This document shows, piece after piece, positions 7,201 through 57,699 of a DNA stretch of 64,000 nucleotides. The position numbers were made by a program, and so were the translations under genes. Position 1 is the first letter of the stretch, and each line of letters begins with the position of its first letter. Under the pieces are notes generated by a model. That model did not search any database, was not told the DNA's origin, and saw nothing but the letters and a program-made list of their open reading frames with translations. Source of the DNA: Candidatus Saccharimonadia bacterium (GTDB taxonomy: Bacteria > Patescibacteriota > Saccharimonadia > CAILAD01 > CAZGYV01); assembly GCA_041906885.1 (NCBI GenBank), contig JAYRII010000012.1, positions 94,955 to 158,954 of the forward strand. The letters run 5' to 3'.

Positions 7201-8574
7201 ATGGCAGAAAATAAACCTGAAAAACAATCTCATATTTCAATGGAAGAGCTAACCAGCTTCGCCAAAAGGCGCGGCTTTGTCTTTCAAGCCAGTGAGCTTT
7301 ATGGCGGCATTGCCGGCTTCTGGGATCTCGGTCCGTATGGGGTCGAGCTGGCCAGTAATATCAAAAAAAGCTGGTGGCGCGAGTTTGTCTATAAAAACCC
7401 TGAAATTATCGGCCTTGATTCGACCATTATTCAAAACCCCAAGCTGTGGCAGGCCAGTGGTCACACCGATACCTTTGTCGATCCGATGATTGATTGTAAG
7501 GCCTGCAAGCACCGTTTTCGAGCAGATCACGTGGCTGGAGTTGACACAAGTGACCTGGCCAAGCTAGACAAGGCTCTAGCAGATAAAGCTTGTCCGAACT
7601 GTGGCAAGACCAAGACTTTCACTCCAGCTCGGACTTTCGGCATGATGTTTAAGACTTACGTCGGCCCGATCGAAGACGAAGCTGCCAAAAGCTATCTGCG
7701 CCCCGAAACGGCCGGGGGAATATTTACTGATTTCGAGCTAGTACGGGAGACGATGCGAGCCAAGCTGCCATTTGGTATCGCTCAGATTGGTAAGGCTTTT
7801 CGCAACGAGATCACGCCTGGAGATTTTATATTTCGAGTGCGTGAATTTGAGCAAATGGAGCTGGAGTACTTTGTCGACCCCAAGGAGGCGAAGAAATGGT
7901 ACGAAGACTGGAAGAAAGCTTGCATGGCTTGGTGTGAGTCGATTGGCCTCTCGAAGGAAAACCTGCAATTCCACGATCACGCTCCAGATGAAAAAGCACA
8001 TTATGCCGATGCCAGCGTCGATATCCAGTATCGCTATCCGTTTGGCTTCAAGGAGCTTTATGGTATCGCTAATCGAACTGACTTTGACCTCAAGGCCCAC
8101 GCCAAAGAGTCAGGCCGCGATTTGAGCTACTTTGATGAAGCCTCGGGCAAGCGTTTCGTGCCTTATGTAATTGAGCCGTCGGTTGGTGCCAGCCGGCTAA
8201 TGCTGGCGCTACTGCTCGACGCTTATGATGAGGAAGAGGTTAGCGGCGAGAAGCGGGTCGTACTACGATTTAAGCCAGAAATAGCTCCGGTCAAAGTAGC
8301 GATATTGCCATTATCAAAGAAGCCCGAGCTATCCAAGCTGGCGCACGAAGTTTATACGACAGTAGCAGGGGAGTACAATGTCGAATATGATGAGACCCAA
8401 TCGATTGGCCGGCGCTATCGCCGCGCCGACGAGATCGGCACACCGTATTGTGTGACAGTTGATTTTGAGAGTCTCGAGGATCAGGCTGTGACCGTGCGTG
8501 AACGTGACTCGATGAAACAAGTACGGATTAAAATCAACCAGCTCAAGGGATATCTTGCAACTAGATTGAACTAG
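7201..8574 (+). CDS. glyQS: glycyl-tRNA synthetase, alpha2 (GlyQS) type
   Basis: class II aaRS motifs, length 457 aa, N-terminal FQASELYGGIAGFWDLGPYG typical of dimeric GlyRS. Confidence 0.9.
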   Translation: MAENKPEKQSHISMEELTSFAKRRGFVFQASELYGGIAGFWDLGPYGVELASNIKKSWWREFVYKNPEIIGLDSTIIQNPKLWQASGHTDTFVDPMIDCKACKHRFRADHVAGVDTSDLAKLDKALADKACPNCGKTKTFTPARTFGMMFKTYVGPIEDEAAKSYLRPETAGGIFTDFELVRETMRAKLPFGIAQIGKAFRNEITPGDFIFRVREFEQMELEYFVDPKEAKKWYEDWKKACMAWCESIGLSKENLQFHDHAPDEKAHYADASVDIQYRYPFGFKELYGIANRTDFDLKAHAKESGRDLSYFDEASGKRFVPYVIEPSVGASRLMLALLLDAYDEEEVSGEKRVVLRFKPEIAPVKVAILPLSKKPELSKLAHEVYTTVAGEYNVEYDETQSIGRRYRRADEIGTPYCVTVDFESLEDQAVTVRERDSMKQVRIKINQLKGYLATRLN

Positions 8575-35771: not shown

Positions 35772-36722
35772 TTACTCATTTTTTATGTTAATAATATTGG
35801 TTGTCTGATTGCTGGTTGACGAATTACCACTATTAGAGCCGTTACCACTAGTACTTTGTTGGTTGTTACTATTTATGATGCCGATATTGTTGTTATTCAC
35901 GATATTGATATTACAGTTGTCATTAAACGTGATTGAATTGGTCGAGCCAGGACCAGTGTCTGTAATCGTGCCACTGTGATTTGGCGTTGGGCAGGTGTTA
36001 TTGTTGCCACCTGAGCCTGAATTATTAACGGAGATGGTATTACCAATCAGACTAGCTTGAGAAAAAAGCCCTGCCCTGGCGTAACTAAAGCTTAACAATG
36101 AAAAAACCACAATCACCAAGGCTCGTTTAGCTATACCGTCAATATTGGGTCGGCCTGCCTTTGGTGTTTGATCAGCCGGTTTTGTCTTGTCTTTGATGGG
36201 AGGATTTTTGGGTAAATCATTGTGTGATTTGCTGGTTTTTCTAAGAGACTGTCGAAGAATTCTTATTTCATCGTAAATGATAAAAGCGGCCGGAATGAAA
36301 ATGAGTAATATTATAATTGGCCAGCCTTTGGAGTGGTTTAGGTAGCCGCCAATTTTGGGATAATGCCACTCTACCCTACCAACTACATTGCCACCGAATA
36401 TCTCAGCGTCATTCTGTTCGTTGGCGTCACCTTTCGTGATCAATGCCGGTAGACCTTGTTTGGTTTTTAGCTCGACGATGCGGTGAGTAATAGTCTGTTT
36501 GGTGTTTTGCGGATTGATATAGGTCACTACGTCGCCAGTTTTTAGCTGCTTATAGGGAACGCGATGGACTATTACCAGTGATTCCTGCGGGATGGCAGGA
36601 TTCATACTGCCAGTCAAAACCGACATGGCCCTAAAGCCAGTTTGCGGTAATAAAAAGACTGCCAGTATGATCCCGCTGATCACACAAATCGTGGCACAAA
36701 ATATTTTTAGAGCTTTGATCAT
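35772..36722 (-). CDS. sipW: SipW-like (archaeal/ER-type, S26B) signal peptidase I with unusual C-terminal extension
   Basis: LTGSMNPAI (SGSMxP box), ITHRIV (His box), ITKGDANEQND (TKGDNN box); second TM then Asn-rich tail. Confidence 0.7.
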   Translation of the reverse strand: MIKALKIFCATICVISGIILAVFLLPQTGFRAMSVLTGSMNPAIPQESLVIVHRVPYKQLKTGDVVTYINPQNTKQTITHRIVELKTKQGLPALITKGDANEQNDAEIFGGNVVGRVEWHYPKIGGYLNHSKGWPIIILLIFIPAAFIIYDEIRILRQSLRKTSKSHNDLPKNPPIKDKTKPADQTPKAGRPNIDGIAKRALVIVVFSLLSFSYARAGLFSQASLIGNTISVNNSGSGGNNNTCPTPNHSGTITDTGPGSTNSITFNDNCNINIVNNNNIGIINSNNQQSTSGNGSNSGNSSTSNQTTNIINIKNE

Positions 36723-36763: not shown

Positions 36764-37300
36764 TTAAGGTTGTGTGCCAGTAAAGACAATGTCAAAGGCA
36801 TTGATCTGAGCCGCAGAGCCAGTCACAGCATCGGCGTGCACATTTACAACCACTTGATAGTTGTTTGTAGCAGCCGCATTGATAGTGGCAATTGAGACGT
36901 TGCCATTAATCAGATCCGCTAAAGTTGTGTCAACGACAGGCGAGTTGTCAATTTTCTGAATCTTGACTTCTACTTTGTTGAAATCTGTAAAGTTGCTGTA
37001 AGTTGGGGCAACTGGCACATGTGCAGTGACAGCTAATGCTACACCACCATTGTTTTTCAAATCAAAAGCGAAGGGTGTGGTATTCACACCAGGAACTACA
37101 TTTGTAAGCATAAAACCCTGCGCCGAGCTACCAAAACCAGACCCAGTATCAACTTGCAAATCAGCCGTGGCAGTAGCTAGCGTGTTATTTGTCAGGGTCG
37201 CAGTTGAAGTCAAATTCGCAAAAGTTGCACCTGCGACTAAAGTGAGAGTTGCTCCAATAGCAACAGCAGCACGAGAGATTGCCATACGTCGTGTTGTCAT
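36764..37300 (-). CDS. TasA/camelysin-family (SipW-cognate signal peptide) secreted protein
   Basis: signal peptide MTTRRMAISRAAVAIGATLTLVAGATFANL with A-x-F-x-N SipW-cognate motif and downstream TLATATADLQVD resembling TasA N-terminus; adjacent to sipW. Confidence 0.55.
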   Translation of the reverse strand: MTTRRMAISRAAVAIGATLTLVAGATFANLTSTATLTNNTLATATADLQVDTGSGFGSSAQGFMLTNVVPGVNTTPFAFDLKNNGGVALAVTAHVPVAPTYSNFTDFNKVEVKIQKIDNSPVVDTTLADLINGNVSIATINAAATNNYQVVVNVHADAVTGSAAQINAFDIVFTGTQP

Positions 37301-37487
37301 ATCTAAATCACCCCCTCTCTGATCCAATTAGCCTCACAAAAAGCTTATCCTTATTATACACTTATTATAATAAAAGCAATCTTTAAATGTAATAAAGCAC
37401 AATTTTTTTGACAGAAGAGGCTGTCTGCTCTATCCTGCAGTCATCATTATAGTTAATTGGGGTGGTGTACTGGGCAAGATTTTATTA

Positions 37488-38570
37488 GTGAGATTAGGGC
37501 TAGGGTTGCTGATCGGAGTATATATAATCGGAGGCTTAGTTCTGTCTGGGGGCAATCCAGTTTTAGCATTGGTGGAGTCAGTCAAGCAGGAGCTCCAGTC
37601 GCCAAGCCAGTTGGCTCGATCGCCCATCCCAGCAAATAGTCAACTAGCTAATGACACTAGTCAAACCCCAGTCTCCAAATCGCCAGCAGCCAAATCTGGT
37701 GAGAATATGAAATCAAACAGTCAGCCACTGACAAAAAAGCCCCAGTCAGTTGGCATTTTTATCAGCAATTCCCCGGATGATCCGGCTGCGTTTGGCGTCC
37801 TAGATCAGGTCTCGGCTATGGGCTTTAACACGGTCTATAACTATTCTTCTTTTCACTCATCACCAGAAAACGTTAGAAAATACCTTGACTATGCTGGAGG
37901 GCGTGGCCTGAAAGTTATTTTTAGTCTTAAAGATCTCTATGATCAATTACCAGGCAGTCAGCAGTGGCCACAAAATTTTGGTTATTATGGAGGTAGCAAC
38001 GAGGAAATAGCCCTAAACGTTGTCCGACTATTTAAGGACCACCCCGCAACCTGGGGATTTTCAATTAGTGATGAAGCACCGGAGGGCCCTGCCCAGTTAT
38101 CGTCTTGGCAGCAAGTGCTTGAAAGCCGTTATCAAAAGATCAAGTCGATCACCAATAAGCCCGTTATGTTGGTATTGGTCGGACAGACCAGCCCAAACCA
38201 ATCGACTCGCAGGAATTTCTTAAGCAGCCTGAGGAGTGCTCGAGATAATTTTGCACTTGATTACTACCCGATTCCGTTCGAATCCCCTGACCAAATTAAT
38301 TCTATCACTGCTGATATGCCAGCGATTGGTGAAAATAATGGTTGGTTCGTTGCTCAATGCTTTAGCTGGAGTAGCTATTCAACAACAGCCTATGGCTTGG
38401 GCTATAATGCCTCTGTTGCTCGCCCGCCAGCCGCTGAGGAGATGTATAATATGGCCAAAATGGCCTTAAACTCCGGAGCGCGCAATATTATGTTTTATTC
38501 ATATTTTGACATCAAAGACAATCCAGCCCAGCTGGCGGCCCTAAAAAGCGTAGTCGCCAGACTACGCTAG
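37488..38570 (+). CDS. secreted hypothetical protein (TIM-barrel glycoside-hydrolase-like suspected)
   Basis: signal peptide; no firm catalytic motif identified. Confidence 0.3.
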   Translation: MRLGLGLLIGVYIIGGLVLSGGNPVLALVESVKQELQSPSQLARSPIPANSQLANDTSQTPVSKSPAAKSGENMKSNSQPLTKKPQSVGIFISNSPDDPAAFGVLDQVSAMGFNTVYNYSSFHSSPENVRKYLDYAGGRGLKVIFSLKDLYDQLPGSQQWPQNFGYYGGSNEEIALNVVRLFKDHPATWGFSISDEAPEGPAQLSSWQQVLESRYQKIKSITNKPVMLVLVGQTSPNQSTRRNFLSSLRSARDNFALDYYPIPFESPDQINSITADMPAIGENNGWFVAQCFSWSSYSTTAYGLGYNASVARPPAAEEMYNMAKMALNSGARNIMFYSYFDIKDNPAQLAALKSVVARLR

Positions 38571-38601: not shown

Positions 38602-40311
38602 CTAGATTTGTGGTGTAAGCTCGGTAATCGCCTGATCAACAGTTTTAATCGGCACTCCAGACTGCTCAATTGCAGAAATGTGTGTATCGAGGTCAGTCGG
38701 CGTAACGGCATAACTGTCACCCGAACTATCTACTTGGTGATAAACTAGCACCAACCAAGTTTTATCGGCTTTGGCTCTGGCGACCCAGCTTGCAACTTGC
38801 TCTGGCGTGGTAGTTGATAAGATGTTTTGTACCCTGATATTATATAGGTCAAAGTTATCTTTACTGTTGTAGCCCTCATCAACCGATCGGTGTGAGCGAT
38901 AGAGTATCTTAATCGCTGCGATAGTGGATGAATTGTATGCACCATATGGCGAGGCAAAATCCTGGACTGGGCTACCAAAATGCACTTCTAAGAAACTTTT
39001 TGAATTGGTCAATTCAGCCATCAAATCATTGTAGGCCAAAGTCGTCAGATCGGGGTGAGTCACTGTGTGTGAAGCAATCTGGTGGCCAGCATTTTTGAAT
39101 GCCATCACATCACTTGAGGTCATGTAGAGTGGATCTTTGTCGATATTACCCGTCAAAATGTATTGCGTTGACAAGACATGATGGGCTGAGAGAATTGGCA
39201 GACCACTGCTGTAAATAGATTTCCAGCCGTCATCAAAAGCCAAGCTGACCAGGCCATTATTAAAGCCGTGTACGGTGGTTGGTACGAAGCTATAATCATC
39301 TACACTCAAATAGCCGACCCCGGCAATCAAGTGAAATACTGTCACGCTTGAGGTGCCGGCTGGCAGTTCAACGCTGTCGCTATATTGCGTCCAGCTTGTC
39401 GGGCTGGCTGGGGCATTTTTTAGGTTCAAATAGCTTATCGTACCATCAATCTTGCTAGCAGCAACCACAACGTGTGTATCGATGCTGGATTTGTAGTAAT
39501 CACTAAAACTATAGATTTGTCCGCCCTGAGCCGGCTGCGAGTCAAAGTACCATTTGGCGTCTCCGTCGGTGTACTTAGTCATGTCAATCCGAGCAGCATG
39601 GTTACCATTGTGACCTGTACTGAGGAGGCTAAAAGTGGCCGTATTAGTACCCCATTTACTATTCTGCCAGGCCAGTGGGCTGCCAGTTAGGTCGTTCACC
39701 TGTTCTAGTGAGTTATTTGGCACCCCGCTAGTTATGACTGGTACGTCAGCTGTGTATTGAGCCAGCTTAGTATTGTCGATGATTAGCCAGCCCCGACCAG
39801 TAATTAGGTGTAAAACAGTAACTGATTTGGCCTTAGCAGGTGTACTAAAAACATATGATACTTGTTTCCAGGTGTTTGTTTTAGCTGCCGTACCTAGCCA
39901 TTGGTAGCTGACACCACCGTCTTCATCGGTCACCCGGACGACTACTTCAGAACTAATATTGGCCCGATAATAATCACTGTATATATACTGTGAGTTAGCT
40001 TTGACCGCCACATCGTCAGAGAACCATTTGGCGTCACCATCGGTGTAGCTAGCTATATTGACTTTGACGCTCCGACTGCCAGTCTGACCGGTCTTGAGAT
40101 AGCTGTATCCGGCAGTATTTGTTCCCCAATTCGAATGAGTCCAGCCTTGAGGTAGTTGGCCTGGTTTATTGGTGCTTGGTTGCTCCATTGATGGATTGAC
40201 GATCAAGTTAGGCCCAATTGCTGCCTGAGCAGGGTTCATCAAGGCACTCACGACAAAAGCAGCCAGAGCAATCATTAGACCTAGTCCAAATCGCATAAGT
40301 AATTTTTTCAT
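38602..40311 (-). CDS. secreted polysaccharide deacetylase (CE4/NodB) with two N-terminal CBM-like beta-sandwich repeats
   Basis: NodB motifs LAFDDGW and HTVTHPDL; duplicated ~150-aa N-terminal modules; signal peptide. Confidence 0.75.
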   Translation of the reverse strand: MKKLLMRFGLGLMIALAAFVVSALMNPAQAAIGPNLIVNPSMEQPSTNKPGQLPQGWTHSNWGTNTAGYSYLKTGQTGSRSVKVNIASYTDGDAKWFSDDVAVKANSQYIYSDYYRANISSEVVVRVTDEDGGVSYQWLGTAAKTNTWKQVSYVFSTPAKAKSVTVLHLITGRGWLIIDNTKLAQYTADVPVITSGVPNNSLEQVNDLTGSPLAWQNSKWGTNTATFSLLSTGHNGNHAARIDMTKYTDGDAKWYFDSQPAQGGQIYSFSDYYKSSIDTHVVVAASKIDGTISYLNLKNAPASPTSWTQYSDSVELPAGTSSVTVFHLIAGVGYLSVDDYSFVPTTVHGFNNGLVSLAFDDGWKSIYSSGLPILSAHHVLSTQYILTGNIDKDPLYMTSSDVMAFKNAGHQIASHTVTHPDLTTLAYNDLMAELTNSKSFLEVHFGSPVQDFASPYGAYNSSTIAAIKILYRSHRSVDEGYNSKDNFDLYNIRVQNILSTTTPEQVASWVARAKADKTWLVLVYHQVDSSGDSYAVTPTDLDTHISAIEQSGVPIKTVDQAITELTPQI

Positions 40312-40451
40312 ATTTTCTCCCTTATTGAAATTTAATGTTGCACTAAAGAAGCTATGACGCGTGACATTAAAACTATGTGGTAAATACCAAATGCAGTAGC
40401 CACAAAAGCTATTATTAAAGATCTAATTTTAAACTTTATCAAAATAACCTG

Positions 40452-40628
40452 CTATTTTGTGGCGTTTTTGAGGTACAAAACACCCCAAACAAGTAAAATG
40501 ACTGCTGACAAGCTAGCTACTGGGATAGCCCAGTTAGCACCAGTTGATGGCAACACAGCTACGCCGGCACCAGCTACTACTGGTACTATTACGCCGCCGC
40601 CGCGGCCTGGTGTAATTCCTTCACTCAT
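40452..40628 (-). CDS. 58-aa peptide ending in a cell-wall sorting signal (LPSTG + hydrophobic + KNATK)
   Basis: AGGAAA RBS 6 nt upstream of ATG; LPSTG-ANWAIPVASLSAVILLVWGVLYL-KNATK; below ORF-track size cutoff. Confidence 0.4.
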   Translation of the reverse strand: MSEGITPGRGGGVIVPVVAGAGVAVLPSTGANWAIPVASLSAVILLVWGVLYLKNATK

Positions 40629-40651
40629 GATTTTTCCTTACTATTAAAAAA

Positions 40652-41758
40652 CTATCTGGTCTGGATGCGATAGCGTCGCGATGACGTTTCCCATCCAGGC
40701 TTAATAGTTTTAAAACGACCCAGAATAATTACCTCGATAAATGACTTATAAAACAGGTATAGATTCGTAAATCTCAAAACGTAAAATAACGGAAAAGCGG
40801 TAAATATATCCCACCGTTTATTTAAGGCAGCGGCAAACGTTGTCCAGCCGAGCATGAAGCCAATGTCAAAGATAAAGTACATCGCCAAAGAGCTTAGCCC
40901 GCGTTGGCTCAAGGCTGCAAATGCCATAATCAAGAGGAGTTCAATCGTAAAAATAAATGTCTCAGCAATCATAAAAAACATATAAGCATCAATTTTTTGA
41001 GCTCGCATGGCTAGCTGGTGTTTTTTCTGACCTTGCCAAAATCCTCTGTACCATCGGACTACCTGATTTTTAAAATCTTTAAAATCTTTCGGATCTTGAG
41101 TGTAGCTTTTTGCTTCCGGGAAATAGGCGATTTTACCAAGTCTGGCGCGGTGTAATTGGATAGTCAGGTCAAAGTCCTCGGTCAGACTACTGTGATCAAA
41201 GTCTAGCTGGTCGAAAATATCAGATCTAAAGCATGAAGTTGGACCGGGAATGACAGTAATTGTGCCCAGCCAGGCCTGCAAACGACGGAAAATTTCTAGA
41301 CCGATAGTGTATTCGAAGGTACGGTATTTGCTAACCCATCCGCCTGGTAAGCTCTGGACATGACCACAGGCAGCTGCATACTTTGGGTTGAGTTTATGAC
41401 GGAAAACCTTGAAATATGTTGGTCCGAAGACTCCATCAGCATCGGCGATATGGATCCAAGAATAGCGTGCCGTCAGATTATAAAAATCAACACACTTCTT
41501 GATCGCACCAGCTTTACCACTGTGCGCTACCTTGATGACATTATTTGGATGTATCATCTGGCTGGCAATTAGTGAGGTGTTATCAACCGAAGCATCATCA
41601 ACGACATAAATATCTCGCTTCGGTTGACCAGCTTTTTTGGCCGAAGCAATTGTAGCAGCAATCACCAGCTCTTCATTATGGGCTGGAATGACCAGGGCTA
41701 ATTTACGTTTATAAATTCTAGCTTTAAACATGAGCTTCCTTGTGTAAACAAAGCCCAT
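40652..41758 (-). CDS. processive family-2 glycosyltransferase (PgaC/IcaA/cellulose-synthase-like)
   Basis: DDAS, DADG, TED and QVVRW (QxxRW) motifs; C-terminal TM helices. Confidence 0.75.
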   Translation of the reverse strand: MGFVYTRKLMFKARIYKRKLALVIPAHNEELVIAATIASAKKAGQPKRDIYVVDDASVDNTSLIASQMIHPNNVIKVAHSGKAGAIKKCVDFYNLTARYSWIHIADADGVFGPTYFKVFRHKLNPKYAAACGHVQSLPGGWVSKYRTFEYTIGLEIFRRLQAWLGTITVIPGPTSCFRSDIFDQLDFDHSSLTEDFDLTIQLHRARLGKIAYFPEAKSYTQDPKDFKDFKNQVVRWYRGFWQGQKKHQLAMRAQKIDAYMFFMIAETFIFTIELLLIMAFAALSQRGLSSLAMYFIFDIGFMLGWTTFAAALNKRWDIFTAFPLFYVLRFTNLYLFYKSFIEVIILGRFKTIKPGWETSSRRYRIQTR

Positions 41759-41924
41759 TTTTTAAATAAAAAGAGGGCTTTCACCCTCGAAATAAACAAT
41801 GAGGCGTATAATAACTTATAATTAACAATATGTCAATAGTCATTAGGTAATAAATTACAAAATACATTTTAAATTTTACTGCCAAAACGCTTACCCTTTG
41901 ATATAATACTTCCTAGGACCAATC

Positions 41925-43301
41925 ATGGCATTATCACGCAGGATCCCTAGTCCCCTAGGCTCTACTTTAGTCGAAATAATTATTAGTCTAAGTATTGTAT
42001 CGGTTGTAATTTTGGCAGTTGTATCGGTACTGATATTTAATTTACGAATAATTTCCAGCGCTAAAGCTCGAGCTATCGGCACGGCACTAGCTAATGAAAA
42101 ATTAGAAAATCTACGCAACATGCCCTACGATAGCCTGGCTACGGTCAATGGACCGATCTATCCGGCCGGTACGATTCCGGATGATCAAAACGTTACTGTC
42201 AGCAATATCAAAATGCGTGTTCACACCGATATTGACTACGTTGACGATCCTTATGATGGAAACTATAGTGGTACAATTGTTGGTAAGCCAAAGGATTTAT
42301 ACCCTTATGATTATAAAAAAGCTACCATATCTGTTTATCTAGTAGCTGGCAATCAGAAATTAACCTCACTCAGTTCAAATATAGCCGGTAAGGTTGCCGA
42401 GACGGCCAGTAATACCGGCATTATCGCGGTTAAAGTCCAAGACGCCAGCGGCAATCCAGTCGAAGATGCTGTTGTCCATTTGACTAATTCCTCAGTTGCA
42501 CCAGCGGTTGATATCACCACTAATACTGATATTCAGGGTCAAGTATTAGTGCCAAAAATGCCACCAGATGCTGGTGGTCATTATCATATTGAAGTGACTA
42601 AAACTGGCTATTCAAGCGATCAAACATATCCAGCTACAGCTCAATTACCAGTACCGGCGCGACCGGACTTTAGTGTTATAGCACAGCAAACTATCAGTCT
42701 GACATTTAGCATTGATCAAACAGCTAATTTAACCGTTAGAGTAAAAGACGCCTCTGGCAATGCTTTAGCTGGTAAGTCAATTACTGTCAGCGGGCAAAAA
42801 CTACTCAATGATCCGAATTCTACACCAAATGTACCAAAAACAACCCAAACACTAACGACTGATGCGACTGGAAAAATCAATATTTCTAGCCTGGAGTGGG
42901 ACAGTTACACTTTCTCAATAAATGGATATAAAATCCTCACTTCATCCCCCTATAGTCCGGTTAGTGTCGGCCCGCTTTCAAGCCTGACAGTTGATATTGT
43001 GGCTGATGTTAATTCAACTAATTATCCGACTATCAGTAATGTTAGCCCTCGCAGTGCCCCACCAGGAGGCAGTTTGCAACTTGATGTAATTGGAAATAAC
43101 TTGAGCAGTACGACCACAGTCAGGCTGAAAAAATCTGGCCAAAGTGATATTCTTGCATCTGGAGTAACTTATGATAGTTCAACAGGTACGCTGAGTGGTA
43201 ACGTTGATCTGAGTAGTGCGGCAACAGGAAACTGGGATATCGAGATTACAAAAGGCGGCTTAACAACTACCCAGATTGGAGGTCTGAATGTCTCAAATTA
43301 G
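41925..43301 (+). CDS. type IV pilin-like (pseudopilin) protein, 458 aa
   Basis: prepilin-type N-terminus ...PLG|STLVEIIISL (Glu at +5) then hydrophobic helix. Confidence 0.6.
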   Translation: MALSRRIPSPLGSTLVEIIISLSIVSVVILAVVSVLIFNLRIISSAKARAIGTALANEKLENLRNMPYDSLATVNGPIYPAGTIPDDQNVTVSNIKMRVHTDIDYVDDPYDGNYSGTIVGKPKDLYPYDYKKATISVYLVAGNQKLTSLSSNIAGKVAETASNTGIIAVKVQDASGNPVEDAVVHLTNSSVAPAVDITTNTDIQGQVLVPKMPPDAGGHYHIEVTKTGYSSDQTYPATAQLPVPARPDFSVIAQQTISLTFSIDQTANLTVRVKDASGNALAGKSITVSGQKLLNDPNSTPNVPKTTQTLTTDATGKINISSLEWDSYTFSINGYKILTSSPYSPVSVGPLSSLTVDIVADVNSTNYPTISNVSPRSAPPGGSLQLDVIGNNLSSTTTVRLKKSGQSDILASGVTYDSSTGTLSGNVDLSSAATGNWDIEITKGGLTTTQIGGLNVSN

Positions 43302-43893
43302 GCCAAGCTGGACTCAGTCAAAAGGTATGACAATGCTAGAGATTATCATTGTACTGCCAATGGTAGCAATTCTAACTATTATTGTCTTTGTATTAATAAC
43401 CAGTTCGCTCAAAAGTTATCGTTATTCCCAAGCTCAAGCCCAAGGCTCATACCAGATTGCTAACTATCTAGAACGGGTCGGACGGGTATTGCGTGGTGCT
43501 TTTGATGTTGAGAGTGCAGATAGTAAATCGTTGGTGATACACGCCTACTTCTCTCCTCGAGACAACATCCCTGACCGGATCAGGTATTTTGTTGATAGTA
43601 GCGGCAACCTAAAGGTTGGTACTGTAGTTGCCACTGGTACCGCTCCCAATTACACCTATAATGTCGCCAGTGAACGAGTTACTACACTACTGTCGAATAT
43701 TAAAAATGATACTACCACACCTGTTTTTACCTACTATGATGATAATGGCAACCAGCTGACCGGTACAATTGCACCTACATCTATTAAGGAAGTTGGCATT
43801 AGATTTGACATTAATCCAGATAGTTCAATCTTGAAAAAGAACATGACCGGACAAACTAGAATCAATCTTAGAAACAGAAAAACGAACCTATGA
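43288..43893 (+). CDS. type IV pilin-like protein, 201 aa
   Basis: ...SKG|MTMLEIIIVL (Glu +5). Confidence 0.6.
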   Translation: MSQIRPSWTQSKGMTMLEIIIVLPMVAILTIIVFVLITSSLKSYRYSQAQAQGSYQIANYLERVGRVLRGAFDVESADSKSLVIHAYFSPRDNIPDRIRYFVDSSGNLKVGTVVATGTAPNYTYNVASERVTTLLSNIKNDTTTPVFTYYDDNGNQLTGTIAPTSIKEVGIRFDINPDSSILKKNMTGQTRINLRNRKTNL

Positions 43894-45332
43894 AAATAGC
43901 TAAAAAATTATTCAATACCGGTGATACTATAAAGGGGTTTACCACAGTTCAAGTCATAATTACATCAATCTTATTAATAAGTATTGGTCTAATTGTCGCC
44001 ACCACTGCCGTGATGAATTACAAATTCTCTACCTACACCCAAAAATCGATTAGCGCCGGAGCTATCGCCGAGGCAGGTGTTAACTACTATTTGTGGCATT
44101 TATCGCATAATGTGACAGATTATTGCGATGGCAATACATGCGGCGTACAAGGTCCTGACGGTTTCGGCCCTTTCGCTTATAACTATAAAGATAGTAGTGG
44201 TAAAGTGGTTGGTACCTATTCTCTCTATGTTAAGCCGCCCCAGAATTATGCTAATACCGTCACTGTCAAGTCAATTGGCAAAGTCAATGGCCTAAATAAA
44301 TCACGAGTAGTTCAGGCTCAACTATCTATTCCGACAGTCGCCTCGTACGTCCTACTCACTTCAACCCAAGCTTGGATTGGACAGAACGAGACATTTAATG
44401 GGCCACTACATTCAAATATTGGCTTAAGAGTAGATTCGACAGTTAATGCCCCAGTGACGGTGGCTCAAAGCACCTACACGCCATCGGTACAGTTTGGTGG
44501 TAATGGTTCGGTCAAACCGGGTATTTGGGCAGGGGTCAATCCTCAACCCGGCAAGTCTACCTGGCAATTTCCGGTGCCGCCGATCGACTTTAGCTCTGTC
44601 ACGACCAACTTACAACAGCTAAAATCCAGCGCTCAGTCGGGTGGAAAATATTTGGGAGCATCTGGCAAAAAAGGTTATTATCTTTTCTTAAAAAGTGATA
44701 ATTCGATTGACGTCTACAAGGTTAATACAGAGAATTGTAATGGTCAGCACATCACAAAAAGCTTTTATCAAAATATTTCTAAGCCGGCTAACGGCATACT
44801 ATTTGTTGAGGATGATGTTTGGATCCAGTCAAATGGCTCACAGCCTAATGTTGATAAGTATAACGGCCGATTGACTATTGCAACTGGTCGCTTCCCAACC
44901 AACAGTAGTACGAACACAACTATCACAATCGAGGGTGACATCTTGTATGCTAAAAAAGATGGTAGCAATGTGATTGGCCTGATAGCCCAAAAAGACGTCA
45001 AAGTGTCACGATTTGCGCCTACTAACATTGAGATCGACGCTGCTATGCTAGCTCAAACTGGCCATGTTTGGTACAACAAAGATACGCTAAATAATAATGG
45101 TAATTGTCAGACTTCAGTTAAAAATAATATTAATTTTTATGGCTCAATGGCGACCTACGATTATTGGACTTGGACGATCGTCAATGGCTCTGGTAGCACG
45201 ATCGATGGCTACAATACTACGGTGAATAATTATGATCAAAATCTCAAATATAATCCCCCACCGGGCTTTCCGACCACAACAACTGGTAATTTTGCTATTC
45301 TCAACTACCGCGAACTACTCGAAAATCCATAA
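43890..45332 (+). CDS. large minor-pilin-like protein lacking Glu+5 (GspK/PilX-like), 480 aa
   Basis: ...IKG|FTTVQVIITS (Gln at +5), overlapping start with previous gene. Confidence 0.5.
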   Translation: MKIAKKLFNTGDTIKGFTTVQVIITSILLISIGLIVATTAVMNYKFSTYTQKSISAGAIAEAGVNYYLWHLSHNVTDYCDGNTCGVQGPDGFGPFAYNYKDSSGKVVGTYSLYVKPPQNYANTVTVKSIGKVNGLNKSRVVQAQLSIPTVASYVLLTSTQAWIGQNETFNGPLHSNIGLRVDSTVNAPVTVAQSTYTPSVQFGGNGSVKPGIWAGVNPQPGKSTWQFPVPPIDFSSVTTNLQQLKSSAQSGGKYLGASGKKGYYLFLKSDNSIDVYKVNTENCNGQHITKSFYQNISKPANGILFVEDDVWIQSNGSQPNVDKYNGRLTIATGRFPTNSSTNTTITIEGDILYAKKDGSNVIGLIAQKDVKVSRFAPTNIEIDAAMLAQTGHVWYNKDTLNNNGNCQTSVKNNINFYGSMATYDYWTWTIVNGSGSTIDGYNTTVNNYDQNLKYNPPPGFPTTTTGNFAILNYRELLENP

Positions 45333-55157: not shown

Positions 55158-56555
55158 ATGATTTCCAAACAAACTCGAACTGCAATTTTCTACATCGCTA
55201 GTATCTTGATTATTGTCATTGGTACGATCATTTTAGTCGCACTAGCTCGAGGCTATAGTTATGATTTCTTTAATGGTCAGATTAAAGAAAATGGCCTTGT
55301 GATAGTTAACTCAATACCTTCTGGGGCTTCGATCAGCTTTAATGGCAATGTTACTAAATATAAAACTCCTTACAGATTGGTTAACGCCGAGCCGGGCAGC
55401 CTGACTGTTAGCTTAAAAAAGGCTGAATTTCGAGATTGGCAGAAAAAGCTAATTGTCCAAGCTCAAGAAGTAAGCTTTGCTGACCGGGCTCTTCTAATAC
55501 CACAGACGATATTCTACGAAAACCTATATGGCTCATTTCGAGTCGCAGCCAGTTTGCAATCTAATGACAACCGAAAAGTAGTTTTTGTAACCGATAAGCC
55601 TACCCTATCAATCTGGATGTCGGAAGGCGAAAAAGCTCCAGTTAAAATTTACCAGGTGCCAACGCCTGATAAACCCGAAGAGACAATCACTTCGATTAGT
55701 GATCTGCAGCTCTCACCAAATAATGGTAGCCAATTACTTTTTAAAGTCACTAGTCAGGCCAGGAGTAATTATTTAACTCTCCCTACTATTGAGAATCAAA
55801 TACCAATAAATATCAACAATACATTTGGTATTAATAGTGGTAATCTGACGTTTAACCCGACAAATAACCACGAATTCTATTGGCTTGACAGTGGCCTGGT
55901 CAGAAAGATAAATCTCGATTCAAAGAATACTGGTGATATATTGGTCGACAATATTATTTATATCAAGGTGGATAGCGATCGAATATTCTATATATCAGCC
56001 GCCACTCCTAATAATTTAAGTCGTGAGTTATGGGGAATGGATCTTAATGGAGTACGAAAAATCAAAATTCTTAACTCGGTTGTCGATAGCCCGGATTACC
56101 AGATTGATTATACGCGCGTCAATCAAAAAGACTATCTTGTGCTGCTAGCCTCAAAGGATAAAACGGCCACGCTATATAGTGATATCTATAATCAGCTACA
56201 AAGTAGTGTACTGAGCAAAGACGCAGTTGGATTCACTTTTTCACCCAATGGGACTTACTTAGTGGTTAATAACAACAACTCAACAAAATCTTTCGATCTT
56301 GATCTGGTCAAACACTATAACTTCAAAACGGATCTAGCCGGCTTGTCGGATTGGCGTTGGCTTGATGACTATCACTTACTAATTATTACAAATGGTAAGC
56401 TCAGAATAATGGATTTTGATGGTCAGAATGATCAGTTAATTTCTGCATCCGGTGATATCGTATCGAATGTTTTGCCCAACAATGACATTAAGTCAATTAA
56501 CTATGTATCATCTGGACAAGTTAAAAAACTTCATTTAACTTTAATGAAAAAGTAA
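55158..56555 (+). CDS. PEGA-domain membrane-anchored protein with C-terminal beta-rich domain
   Basis: N-terminal TM; VIVNSIPSGASISFNG...KTPY PEGA-like segment. Confidence 0.45.
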   Translation: MISKQTRTAIFYIASILIIVIGTIILVALARGYSYDFFNGQIKENGLVIVNSIPSGASISFNGNVTKYKTPYRLVNAEPGSLTVSLKKAEFRDWQKKLIVQAQEVSFADRALLIPQTIFYENLYGSFRVAASLQSNDNRKVVFVTDKPTLSIWMSEGEKAPVKIYQVPTPDKPEETITSISDLQLSPNNGSQLLFKVTSQARSNYLTLPTIENQIPININNTFGINSGNLTFNPTNNHEFYWLDSGLVRKINLDSKNTGDILVDNIIYIKVDSDRIFYISAATPNNLSRELWGMDLNGVRKIKILNSVVDSPDYQIDYTRVNQKDYLVLLASKDKTATLYSDIYNQLQSSVLSKDAVGFTFSPNGTYLVVNNNNSTKSFDLDLVKHYNFKTDLAGLSDWRWLDDYHLLIITNGKLRIMDFDGQNDQLISASGDIVSNVLPNNDIKSINYVSSGQVKKLHLTLMKK

Positions 56556-56556
56556 T

Positions 56557-57699
56557 TTAGCTGACCTCAGGTAAATGAGGTGATTTTGTGTTATCCGGTG
56601 TGGGCTGGAGATTATTTTGATTATCATTTTTGTGAGGATTAAAAAACGCTATAATTTTATTAAATAATCCTTTAATCTGATCGCCAAAACTCGGAGCGTT
56701 ACCCGGCAAATTAGCTGATTTTACATCACTTACTGCTGCTAATTGTGGTGTGGTCTCCGTTTTTGGTAATGGTTCGATTTGTTTGGCCGTCACTATCAAT
56801 CGCTTCCAACTCGTACCTGGTGGTGTGCAAGTAATCAAAGTCAGGATTGGCTCACTAGTTTGGTTTAAAACTGAAAGATCGGTTGGTGCTACAATTTTGG
56901 TGTTGATCACCTCATAAACATACTTACGTGAAGAATAGTTGACTTGAACTTTATCTCCAACCGCGAGCTTATCGAGCAAAGCAAAGACAAATTTATAGTT
57001 ACCTGGCTCCCACCAATCATTACTTGAGTGTCCGACTATGACTACATTTCCGATCTCACCTGGTACAGCCGTACCGGCATAGTGTACAACGCCATCACGC
57101 AAAGCCACCTGTATGTTCTTCTCCTGTTGGCTAGGCTCGAGGATAAGTGGTGCTGTCGAGTTTATCTTTGGGACCGATACGATATTTTCTGGTGGTACGA
57201 CTTCCGCCTGAGGCGCACTGGCTTGCTTGGTCGAGACAGGGAGATTGATGCTCTCTTGAGCTTTGGGCGGATTAAAAAAATAATTTATCTGCGAGATAAT
57301 AACGGGAGCATTAAAAATAAGTGCAAAAACCGTAAAGCTAATCAAGCCAATACCTAAGTACTTCAGACGACGTTTAGTGGCAATCTTGTTAAGATGGAGA
57401 TTTTTAATCACTTTTTCTGACCAGGTAGACGGTTCTTTGTTTATGGCTAAATCTGAATGACTTGGGCTGTAGTCGTGCAGAGTGTTGGGCTTAATACCGC
57501 TATCGACTTTGATTTGAGGCATTGGCTCGGCTTTTGGTGGCGGAGGTGGCGGTGGACTTGGCTGTTTAATGACATTTAATAACTCATTTGCTTCTAGCTC
57601 AGCCTTGGTTGGTTTTTGGACACGACCCAAATTCGGCTGACTTGCACCGGTTCGGTCATCGATATTGAGGTTAGTGGGATTGTTATCTGAGGGATTCAT
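56557..57699 (-). CDS. sortase (transpeptidase) with Pro-rich cytoplasmic N-terminus
   Basis: VIVGHSS (His), TLITC (TLXTC Cys), conserved Arg region; TM helix. Confidence 0.8.
   Translation of the reverse strand: MNPSDNNPTNLNIDDRTGASQPNLGRVQKPTKAELEANELLNVIKQPSPPPPPPPKAEPMPQIKVDSGIKPNTLHDYSPSHSDLAINKEPSTWSEKVIKNLHLNKIATKRRLKYLGIGLISFTVFALIFNAPVIISQINYFFNPPKAQESINLPVSTKQASAPQAEVVPPENIVSVPKINSTAPLILEPSQQEKNIQVALRDGVVHYAGTAVPGEIGNVVIVGHSSNDWWEPGNYKFVFALLDKLAVGDKVQVNYSSRKYVYEVINTKIVAPTDLSVLNQTSEPILTLITCTPPGTSWKRLIVTAKQIEPLPKTETTPQLAAVSDVKSANLPGNAPSFGDQIKGLFNKIIAFFNPHKNDNQNNLQPTPDNTKSPHLPEVS

Follow-up and report, generated by a model that had tools for sequence, protein, structure and literature searches.

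Sortases are known as protein anchors and as pilus polymerases, and the sorting signal on which they act (NCBIfam TIGR01167; Pfam Gram_pos_anchor) combines an LPXTG pentapeptide with a hydrophobic helix and a basic tail. Here, we describe a gene from Saccharimonadia, ultra-small epibiotic bacteria that depend on surface contact with host bacteria, whose 58-amino-acid (aa) product is little more than such a signal. It lies in a 64,000-nucleotide (nt) stretch of DNA from a Candidatus Saccharimonadia bacterium (NCBI GenBank assembly GCA_041906885.1, contig JAYRII010000012.1, positions 94,955 to 158,954 of the forward strand), which we analyzed at its full length and refer to as the window; positions are those of the window unless another locus is named. 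On balance, the sequence evidence suggests that this mini-LPXTG peptide is probably a substrate of sortase whose function is tied to an exopolysaccharide module of the synthase-dependent kind, conserved in Saccharimonadia. The cassette that encodes it, comprising the mini-LPXTG gene, a glycosyltransferase family 2 (GT2) synthase, a carbohydrate esterase family 4 (CE4) deacetylase and, mostly, a sortase, is conserved in Saccharimonadia; our literature searches found no description of it, and as far as they show it is previously undescribed. The paper on the "Pam" pilus of the candidate phyla radiation (CPR) concerns a different locus.

Several described systems resemble this cassette in part. 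Like other LPXTG substrates, the mini-LPXTG peptide has the pentapeptide, the hydrophobic helix and the basic tail, and a sortase is present in the window and adjacent to the gene in relatives. Unlike them, it has no signal peptide or passenger, carries only about 22 low-complexity residues ahead of the motif, and is encoded in a polysaccharide operon. The NCBIfam family NF058583 (LAXTG_small_WW, "LAXTG motif-containing small protein", a 54-position profile) likewise holds curated tiny proteins built around a sortase motif, so signal-only sortase targets are already recognized as a kind. However, NF058583 is built on LAXTG (class E type) instead of LPXTG, and its cutoff of 65 bits was not reached: weak matches came from 5 of 63 mini-LPXTG family members scanned, one of them scoring about 13 bits, and the window peptide gave none at E ≤ 1. 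A literature search found no paper on the NF058583 family.

A link between protein sorting and exopolysaccharide has been described for the PEP-CTERM/exosortase (EpsH) system, in which a sorting signal and its enzyme are tied to exopolysaccharide loci with glycosyltransferases and PF01522 deacetylases (Haft et al. 2006, PMC1569441). PEP-CTERM signals share the short motif, helix and basic tail, and the proteins bearing them tend to be small, with low-complexity sequence. Their motif is a different one, however, the enzyme is an exosortase instead of a sortase, and they belong to another type of envelope; the system, whose own function is unresolved, serves as an analogy only. The operons for poly-N-acetylglucosamine (PNAG), IcaA-IcaD-IcaB and PgaC-PgaD-PgaB, combine a GT2, a small membrane protein and a CE4 as the window does. 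In contrast to them, the GT2 of the window scores 81 bits against PgaC_IcaA (TIGR03937), its best NCBIfam match, where the equivalog cutoff is 422 bits, the peptide has one helix and a sortase motif, and there is no IcaC/PgaA equivalent here. Finally, dedicated sortase-target pairs (class GN "marine", TIGR03784; Streptomyces class E/chaplin) also place a sortase beside one specific substrate, and long chaplins are small hydrophobic sortase-anchored proteins. The targets in those pairs, however, possess a signal peptide together with domains that are folded or amyloid, no polysaccharide genes accompany them, and the sortases described here score under the class cutoffs.

The mini-LPXTG gene and its homologs

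A first-pass annotation of the window, made from the sequence alone, had noted a 58-aa open reading frame (ORF) with a ribosome-binding site (RBS) and a sorting signal. The ORF is present with the sequence quoted there, but on the minus strand; the strand had been left unstated, and both the RBS (AAGGA) and the signal (LPSTG, helix and KNATK) were recovered. Its parts are as follows.

40452..40628, minus strand: mini-LPXTG gene, 58 aa plus stop, MSEGITPGRGGGVIVPVVAGAGVAVLPSTGANWAIPVASLSAVILLVWGVLYLKNATK (from the ORF list and the sequence)
40626-40628, minus strand: ATG start codon (from the sequence)
40635..40639, minus strand: RBS AAGGA, 6 nt 5' of the ATG, in a region kept in the alignment with related locus L003
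40554..40628, minus strand: N-terminal tail, residues 1-25, G/A/V/T/P-rich, the portion that a sortase would transfer
40539..40553, minus strand: LPSTG sortase recognition motif, residues 26-30, read from the DNA as TTG CCA TCA ACT GGT
40470..40538, minus strand: predicted single transmembrane helix, residues 31-53, ANWAIPVASLSAVILLVWGVLYL, with the conserved face A38, G44, L45, W48, G49, Y52
40455..40469, minus strand: basic tail KNATK, residues 54-58, putatively cytoplasmic (from the sequence)

The pentapeptide, a hydrophobic stretch of 23 residues and a positive tail all lie at the extreme C terminus, as expected of a sorting signal, and the sortase cut is predicted between T29 and G30. The statement in the first-pass annotation that the ORF has neither signal peptide nor passenger domain agrees with its sequence: the N terminus of the window peptide, MSEGITPGRGGG, shows no n-region/h-region layout and no Sec-type signal peptide, and just 25 residues precede the motif, with no passenger domain. 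Compared with Pfam and NCBIfam, IcaD/PgaD models included, the window peptide gave no Pfam match and no IcaD/PgaD match at E ≤ 1. When all six frames of the 64-kb window were searched for LPXTG-type sorting signals, the mini-LPXTG ORF alone was found; under identical criteria, the chance expectation from 300 simulated windows (first-order Markov) was 0.003 such signals per 64 kb.

A word-based search yielded five close homologs (58-66 aa) and one distant homolog. A profile search across 1.84 billion cluster representatives then returned 58 matches at E ≤ 1e-3, all of 51-92 aa, and a second profile search gave a family of 114 sequences of 50-92 aa, with a typical length of about 57 aa. None of these homologs is the C-terminal part of a long protein. 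The syntenic ortholog in L003 is 66% identical, with a nonsynonymous rate (dN) of 0.24 and a synonymous rate (dS) of 1.21, and hence a dN/dS of about 0.2; the ORF is conserved and under purifying selection. On the strength of the RBS, the tight operon described below, this dN/dS, the uniformly small cluster representatives and the 114 members, we conclude that the mini-LPXTG ORF is a real gene.

The first-pass annotation had also raised the possibility of a remnant of a larger surface protein, for which a long LPXTG protein at the same position in relatives had been named beforehand as the telling observation. No such protein occurs among the related loci examined, and orthologous loci retain the same small ORF; together with the small size of every representative and the dN/dS, this refutes the remnant. 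The GT2 gene upstream is intact, and its stop lies 23 nt before the ATG. A chance ORF was rejected on the expectation of 0.003 per window, the dN/dS and the uniformly small homologs.

Anatomy of the peptide family

We aligned the 114 sequences on the LPxTG motif and measured conservation as information in bits per column. The strict motif is present in 109 of the 114 members, and near-variants of it occur in the remaining five. Information is 4.0-4.3 bits at each of L, P, T and G, against 1.7 bits at the X position, which accepts N, A, Q, S, V, T, K or E; invariant L, P, T and G around a free X is the recognition rule of sortases. TIGR01167 was matched by 46 of the 63 members scanned, and its cutoff was passed by several of them, among others P0019, P0033, P0049, P0091, P0034 and P0014 (16.5-21.8 bits), so that the family straddles it. 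Because the motif is near-invariant with a free X, the chance expectation is low and TIGR01167 matches are found, we read the sorting signal as functional.

Median lengths are 22 residues ahead of the motif and 30 behind it. The pre-motif tail is simple in composition across the family (G 18%, A 17%, V 16%, T 13%; G+A+V+T = 65%) and low in positional information, at 0.65-2.4 bits per column; most members begin with MY, and it is with MSEGITPGRGGG that the window subclade begins. By the Hessa scale, the best 19-residue sum of the window tail is +6.6 and the family median of the best 15-residue sum is +2.95, values at which the tail would be unable to span the membrane. For the post-motif segment the sums are +0.66 in the window and +0.35 as the family median, compatible with spanning, which makes the C-terminal segment the sole membrane-spanning candidate in the peptide. 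A hairpin with the N-terminal stretch as a second transmembrane helix was considered and is disfavored by these sums and by the prolines and glycines. AlphaFold2 (AF2), run with the family alignment, predicts a helix at residues 34-57 (predicted local distance difference test, pLDDT, 73-87) and mostly coil in the N-terminal part, with a short low-confidence helix at 16-22 (pLDDT 53-57). The last 12 residues contain a median of 2 K/R.

Apart from the motif, the most conserved feature is one face of this helix. Positions +12 A, +18 G, +19 L, +22 W, +23 G and +26 Y carry about 3 bits each, and W[GA]xx[YF] is found in 110 of the 114 members. In generic LPXTG anchors the helix is kept in composition only, whereas the mini-LPXTG family keeps a sequence-specific face (A, GL, WG, Y).

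Pilin-like polymerization through lysine was rejected as a role, since Lys occurs in only 53 of 114 tails and in the window tail not at all. Apart from one LPXTG tail (ScpC, E 0.5), a profile search of the Protein Data Bank (PDB) with the peptide family produced only spurious low-complexity matches, to designed "Pizza" proteins.

The operon and its conservation in relatives

On the minus strand, the GT2 gene is followed by the mini-LPXTG gene, a 36-aa micro-ORF and a deacetylase with a carbohydrate-binding module (CBM) and a CE4 domain, with gaps of 23, 9 and 20 nt. The first-pass interpretation of the ORF is partly supported; it missed this conserved glycosyltransferase/deacetylase operon context.

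40652..41758, minus strand: processive GT2 synthase, 368 aa (Pfam Glyco_tranf_2_3, Glyco_trans_2_3, Glycos_transf_2)
40332..40442, minus strand: micro-ORF, 36 aa, TTG start, MIKFKIRSLIIAFVATAFGIYHIVLMSRVIASLVQH, with one hydrophobic helix and an I-Y-H motif
38602..40311, minus strand: secreted polysaccharide deacetylase, 569 aa (Pfam Polysacc_deac_1, 79 bits; CBM_4_9)
41808..41836, minus strand: candidate sigma-70-like operon promoter upstream of the GT2 start, 11/12 match (consensus match only)

No terminator-like site was found on the minus strand between 40311 and 40652.

The linkage of these genes extends well beyond the window. In 12 of 12 distinct contexts of the peptide, a GT2 ortholog and a CE4 are adjacent. 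Gene order varies, with three or more arrangements: GT2, mini-LPXTG and a large secreted CE4 follow one another in the window, L001, L003 and L010; mini-LPXTG, a short membrane-anchored CE4 and GT2 in L006-L009, L011 and L012; and a divergent sortase, then mini-LPXTG, CE4 and GT2 in L002 and the P0032 contig. In seven of these contexts (L002, L006, L008, L009, L011, L012 and the P0032 contig), a sortase gene directly borders the cassette. The linkage of mini-LPXTG, GT2 and CE4 is therefore conserved across Saccharimonadia despite rearrangements of gene order, and it is tighter (12/12) than the linkage of the peptide to the sortase (7/12). In L001-L012 and the window, no other ORF has a convincing sorting signal, large neighboring proteins included.

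We also approached the cassette from the GT2 side, scanning metagenomes with the GT2 alignment and annotating 80 loci with local hidden Markov models (HMMs). For 35 loci, flanks of 1.5 kb or more were available on either side of the GT2; of these, a mini-LPXTG ORF was present in 28 (23 by HMM, 5 by motif), a CE4 in 32 and a sortase in 18, counts that overstate independence because some of the metagenome loci are near-duplicates. The motif-only and weakest-scoring ORFs belong to a related subfamily that lacks WG..Y. Where the order is mini-LPXTG, CE4, GT2 and enough downstream sequence is available, a sortase starts within 1.3 kb behind the GT2 in 17 of 22 loci.

One locus offers a view of how the peptide may sit in the membrane. 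In L020 (6073..8166), a large CBM-CE4 carries the mini-LPXTG module as an in-frame fusion in front of its signal-like segment; the N terminus of the fusion reads MFSSTGKGLF..HHLPNIGSVNGVALVVAVVMIVWAGLYLVFTKFHVK and runs into that segment. Since the CE4 domain must be outside, the mini-LPXTG helix of the fusion would run from outside to inside, which would place the tail and the motif outside, as a sortase requires. The fusion keeps the helix motif as W-A-x-x-Y, and its LPxTG has decayed to LPNIG, which points to a role of the helix of its own, independent of cleavage.

The GT2 has the DxD, TED and QxxRW motifs, with D106xD108, E194-D195 and Q232..R235-W236 invariant in 10 orthologs, and its transmembrane helices are C-terminal only; GT-A motifs with helices after the catalytic domain are what is expected of a processive, membrane-embedded GT2 synthase. 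The orthologs are 42-49% identical. The family comprises more than 1000 clusters at 90% identity, of which the named ones are mostly Saccharimonadales or Patescibacteria, and a few odd bin labels (Nevskiaceae, Limnocylindrales) are possible binning errors. Its best PDB matches are hyaluronan synthase and BcsA. From these solved relatives, the product would be a beta-linked polymer; the CE4 partner suggests an N-acetylhexosamine polymer. The alignment to hyaluronan synthase begins at residue 120 of that protein, so that the N-terminal helices seen in its structural relatives are missing from the GT2.

The deacetylase consists of a signal peptide, a CBM_4_9-like domain and a CE4 domain in which the FDDG and HTVTH motifs are intact. 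The micro-ORF, which starts 9 nt past the mini-LPXTG stop and ends 20 nt ahead of the deacetylase start, is conserved as a 35-36-aa ORF with an (I/L)-Y-(H/Q) motif in L003 (about 8196..8306), in L001 (6303..6410) and downstream of the mini-LPXTG gene in L016; L010 and L013 lack it. Its sequence is similar to the N-terminal anchor (..A.FYF.YR.. or ..LFLGYHLFP..) found in the CE4s of about 470 aa that lie directly behind the GT2 elsewhere, and by this likeness it may be a detached anchor module of the CE4. A model in which the peptide and the micro-ORF replace two missing N-terminal helices of the GT2 was discarded as not general, L010 and L013 being without the micro-ORF.

The sortase

One further feature of the window lies outside the operon, and the first-pass annotation had already pointed to it.

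56557..57699, minus strand: sortase, 380 aa (Pfam Sortase, 95.8 bits), with an N-terminal membrane anchor and a TLITC catalytic motif

The protein passes the general sortase model TIGR01076 and reaches no cutoff of the class A-F models. Its identity to five of the six cassette-adjacent sortases compared (those of L006, L008, L009, L011 and L012) is 36-51%. This range is similar to that of the GT2 orthologs, which makes it plausible that the window sortase is the same enzyme moved by 16 kb, and it is the presumed processing enzyme of the peptide. Of the earlier proposal of a sortase-processed peptide, the processing part gains indirect support, from the near-invariant LPxTG with its free X and from the adjacent sortase in most relatives.

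A PEGA-domain gene (55158..56555, plus strand) is convergent with the sortase gene. In Southlakia epibionticum, SEML1_0326 and SEML1_0327 are the same sortase/PEGA pair, and both are growth-defective or essential in transposon sequencing (Tn-seq; Wang et al. 2023, PMC10633639, supplementary table). The essential Southlakia exopolysaccharide (EPS) genes SEML1_0081-0083 were considered as a counterpart of the cassette and set aside, being of Wzy/flippase type instead. The sortase clade also has a short LPGN/LPxN-like motif in a C-terminal extension past the catalytic domain (window, L008, L009, L011 and L012): for instance, the window enzyme carries SANLPGNAPSFG, that of L008 carries LQLPGNTPSLW, and those of L009 and L011 terminate in NELPGN or NELPSN. 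This tail might be substrate-mimicking or autoregulatory.

Neighboring genes

Further genes lie near the operon. A signal peptidase I of the archaeal/SipW type (TIGR02228, 87.8 bits) with a long Asn/Ser-rich C-terminal extension is encoded at 35772..36722 on the minus strand. It adjoins a 187-aa protein (36764..37327, minus strand) whose SipW-type signal peptide is weakly matched (TIGR04088, 13 bits, under the cutoff). The two, which are syntenic in L003, look by sequence like a TasA/camelysin-like or other fiber subunit pair. At 37488..38570 on the plus strand, convergent with the deacetylase and syntenic in L003, lies a gene for a 360-aa secreted protein with a weak match to DUF4434 (glycoside-hydrolase-like), which may be a hydrolase for the same polymer. 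Three consecutive plus-strand genes (458, 201 and 480 aa; 41925..45332), divergent from the GT2 operon and again syntenic in L003, encode proteins with hydrophobic N termini like those of type IV pilin or pseudopilin prepeptides (e.g., ...GMTMLEIIIVLPMVAIL) and with CarboxypepD_reg, Big_1 and SpaA-like domains.

Discussion

We favor a model in which the mini-LPXTG peptide, as a sortase substrate, acts together with the exopolysaccharide synthase and deacetylase encoded beside it. The peptide would insert without a signal peptide in an N-out/C-in orientation, by a Pf3-coat-like, YidC-type insertion; its basic tail would stay in the cytoplasm and LPSTG would sit at the outer face of the membrane. 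The conserved helix face would dock it on a membrane partner, most likely the GT2 synthase and otherwise the sortase; a specific partner is suggested by the conservation of this face, by its retention in the L020 fusion and by a GT2 without N-terminal helices. The sortase would then cut between T29 and G30 and transfer the 29-residue tail (MSEGITPGRGGGVIVPVVAGAGVAVLPST) through the Thr carboxyl to a primary amine. The acceptor could be, as in canonical sortase reactions, a peptidoglycan precursor, or it could be one of the glucosamine amines that the CE4 would expose on the GT2 product; with either acceptor the peptide would serve as a covalent adaptor joining the deacetylated polymer to the cell envelope. 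A hybrid of the two functions, with the peptide docking first and being cleaved afterwards, is likely.

A number of points weigh against this model. We infer the expression, membrane insertion, cleavage and attachment of the peptide from sequence. To our knowledge, every characterized sortase substrate has a signal peptide, and there is none here; the case for N-out insertion draws on analogy and on one natural fusion, known from a lone contig and possibly an assembly artifact. The window peptide scores 13.5 bits against LPXTG_anchor (TIGR01167), where the cutoff is 15.9, and this score just under the cutoff is probably why it carries no name. The sortase of the window is 16 kb away from the mini-LPXTG gene. 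In Southlakia the sortase counterpart is essential and an adjacent GT2/CE4 cassette is apparently missing, which implies that the sortase has other substrates and is not dedicated to the peptide in every lineage. Seven of the 35 GT2 loci have no mini-LPXTG ORF within 5 kb and instead have a membrane-anchored CE4 of about 470 aa directly behind the GT2, so the synthase may be able to work without the peptide, or the peptide is encoded elsewhere. The matches of the GT2 to PgaC, NodC and hyaluronan synthase are all far under the family cutoffs. Lastly, there is a second mini-LPXTG subfamily (MYG.G...LPNTGG.R.LF.AA.AV...) without the WG..Y helix motif. At its loci (L041, L042, L043, L053, L063, L064, L073 and L088), it lies 1-1.5 kb downstream of the GT2, on the opposite strand and convergent to it, outside the operon.

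It is extremely improbable that the ORF arose by chance or was left behind when a full-length LPXTG surface protein was frameshifted or truncated: only its small size, the missing signal peptide and the score under the TIGR01167 cutoff speak for it, against homologs of 50-92 aa that are never embedded in a long protein, an intact GT2 upstream, a dN/dS of about 0.2, an RBS, conserved synteny and the low chance expectation. The chief rival, which we consider unlikely, is an accessory subunit of the IcaD/PgaD type that would activate or stabilize the GT2, with LPxTG as an uncleaved structural turn at the membrane surface. In icaADBC, icaD sits between the synthase and deacetylase genes, and the mini-LPXTG gene similarly lies between an IcaA/PgaC-like synthase and an IcaB/PgaB-like deacetylase; the conserved helix face, the GT2 without the N-terminal helices of its structural relatives, and the L020 fusion, where the helix motif is kept and LPxTG has decayed to LPNIG, would all suit such a subunit. 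A turn, however, would not be expected to hold to the sortase rule in 109 of 114 members or to have a sortase adjacent in most relatives, and no PgaD/IcaD match was obtained for the window peptide at E ≤ 1 or among the 25 NCBIfam families listed for 63 members. The subunit reading would also fit the hybrid described above, in which docking precedes cleavage. The gene position fits, but the peptide has one spanning segment rather than two helices; a one-helix micro-ORF follows at 40332..40442.

The peptide could also be a regulator or signal directed at the sortase. One form would be a pseudo-substrate, as the first-pass annotation had already considered, or a SafA-like protein controlling the stability or activity of the enzyme; another would be the source of a membrane "C-peptide" whose release would report sortase activity and tune polysaccharide production. 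The lack of a passenger domain, a post-cleavage helix that is the best conserved part apart from the motif, and genetic linkage to the sortase in many genomes are consistent with this, and in Streptococcus gordonii a sortase-released C-peptide is sensed, which would be a precedent. Another is SafA, a sortase-associated small membrane protein of Actinobacteria with an FPW motif, encoded next to the housekeeping sortase (PMC9282373). Yet the 58-aa sequence lacks FPW, the defining motif of SafA, the window sortase lies 16 kb from the gene, the peptide is more tightly linked to GT2 and CE4 (12/12) than to the sortase (7/12), and no two-component system or other sensor is conserved nearby in the contexts examined; we regard a regulatory role as less likely still than an IcaD/PgaD-type subunit. 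On a par with that subunit, and so also doubtful, is ligation of the peptide to sugar by the sortase, or its use as a covalent adaptor anchoring the exopolysaccharide to the wall. In the ligation variant, the GT2 would extrude a GlcNAc-type polymer, the CE4 would expose glucosamine amines, and these, not the peptidoglycan cross-bridge, would resolve the thioester between sortase and mini-LPXTG peptide, giving a peptide-N-acylated polysaccharide, a natural peptide-glycan conjugate. Either version would explain the near-constant deacetylase, the lack of a passenger domain and a helix face suited to docking on the synthase, and sortase A reportedly takes amino-sugar nucleophiles in vitro (said to have been found by Samantaray and colleagues in 2008).

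Under the favored model of a sortase substrate coupled to the exopolysaccharide module, the cassette parallels, in a Gram-positive-type setting, the long-unresolved association of PEP-CTERM/exosortase with exopolysaccharide. It also illustrates that ORFs shorter than 60 aa, which fall under annotation cutoffs, can form the conserved core of an operon. As the Southlakia counterpart of the window sortase is growth-defective or essential in Tn-seq and its substrates are uncharacterized, the mini-LPXTG family provides a concrete hypothesis for what such a sortase may act on. A substrate that is nearly all signal, locked into a synthase/deacetylase cassette across Saccharimonadia, points to a role for sortase in building or tethering a surface glycan.

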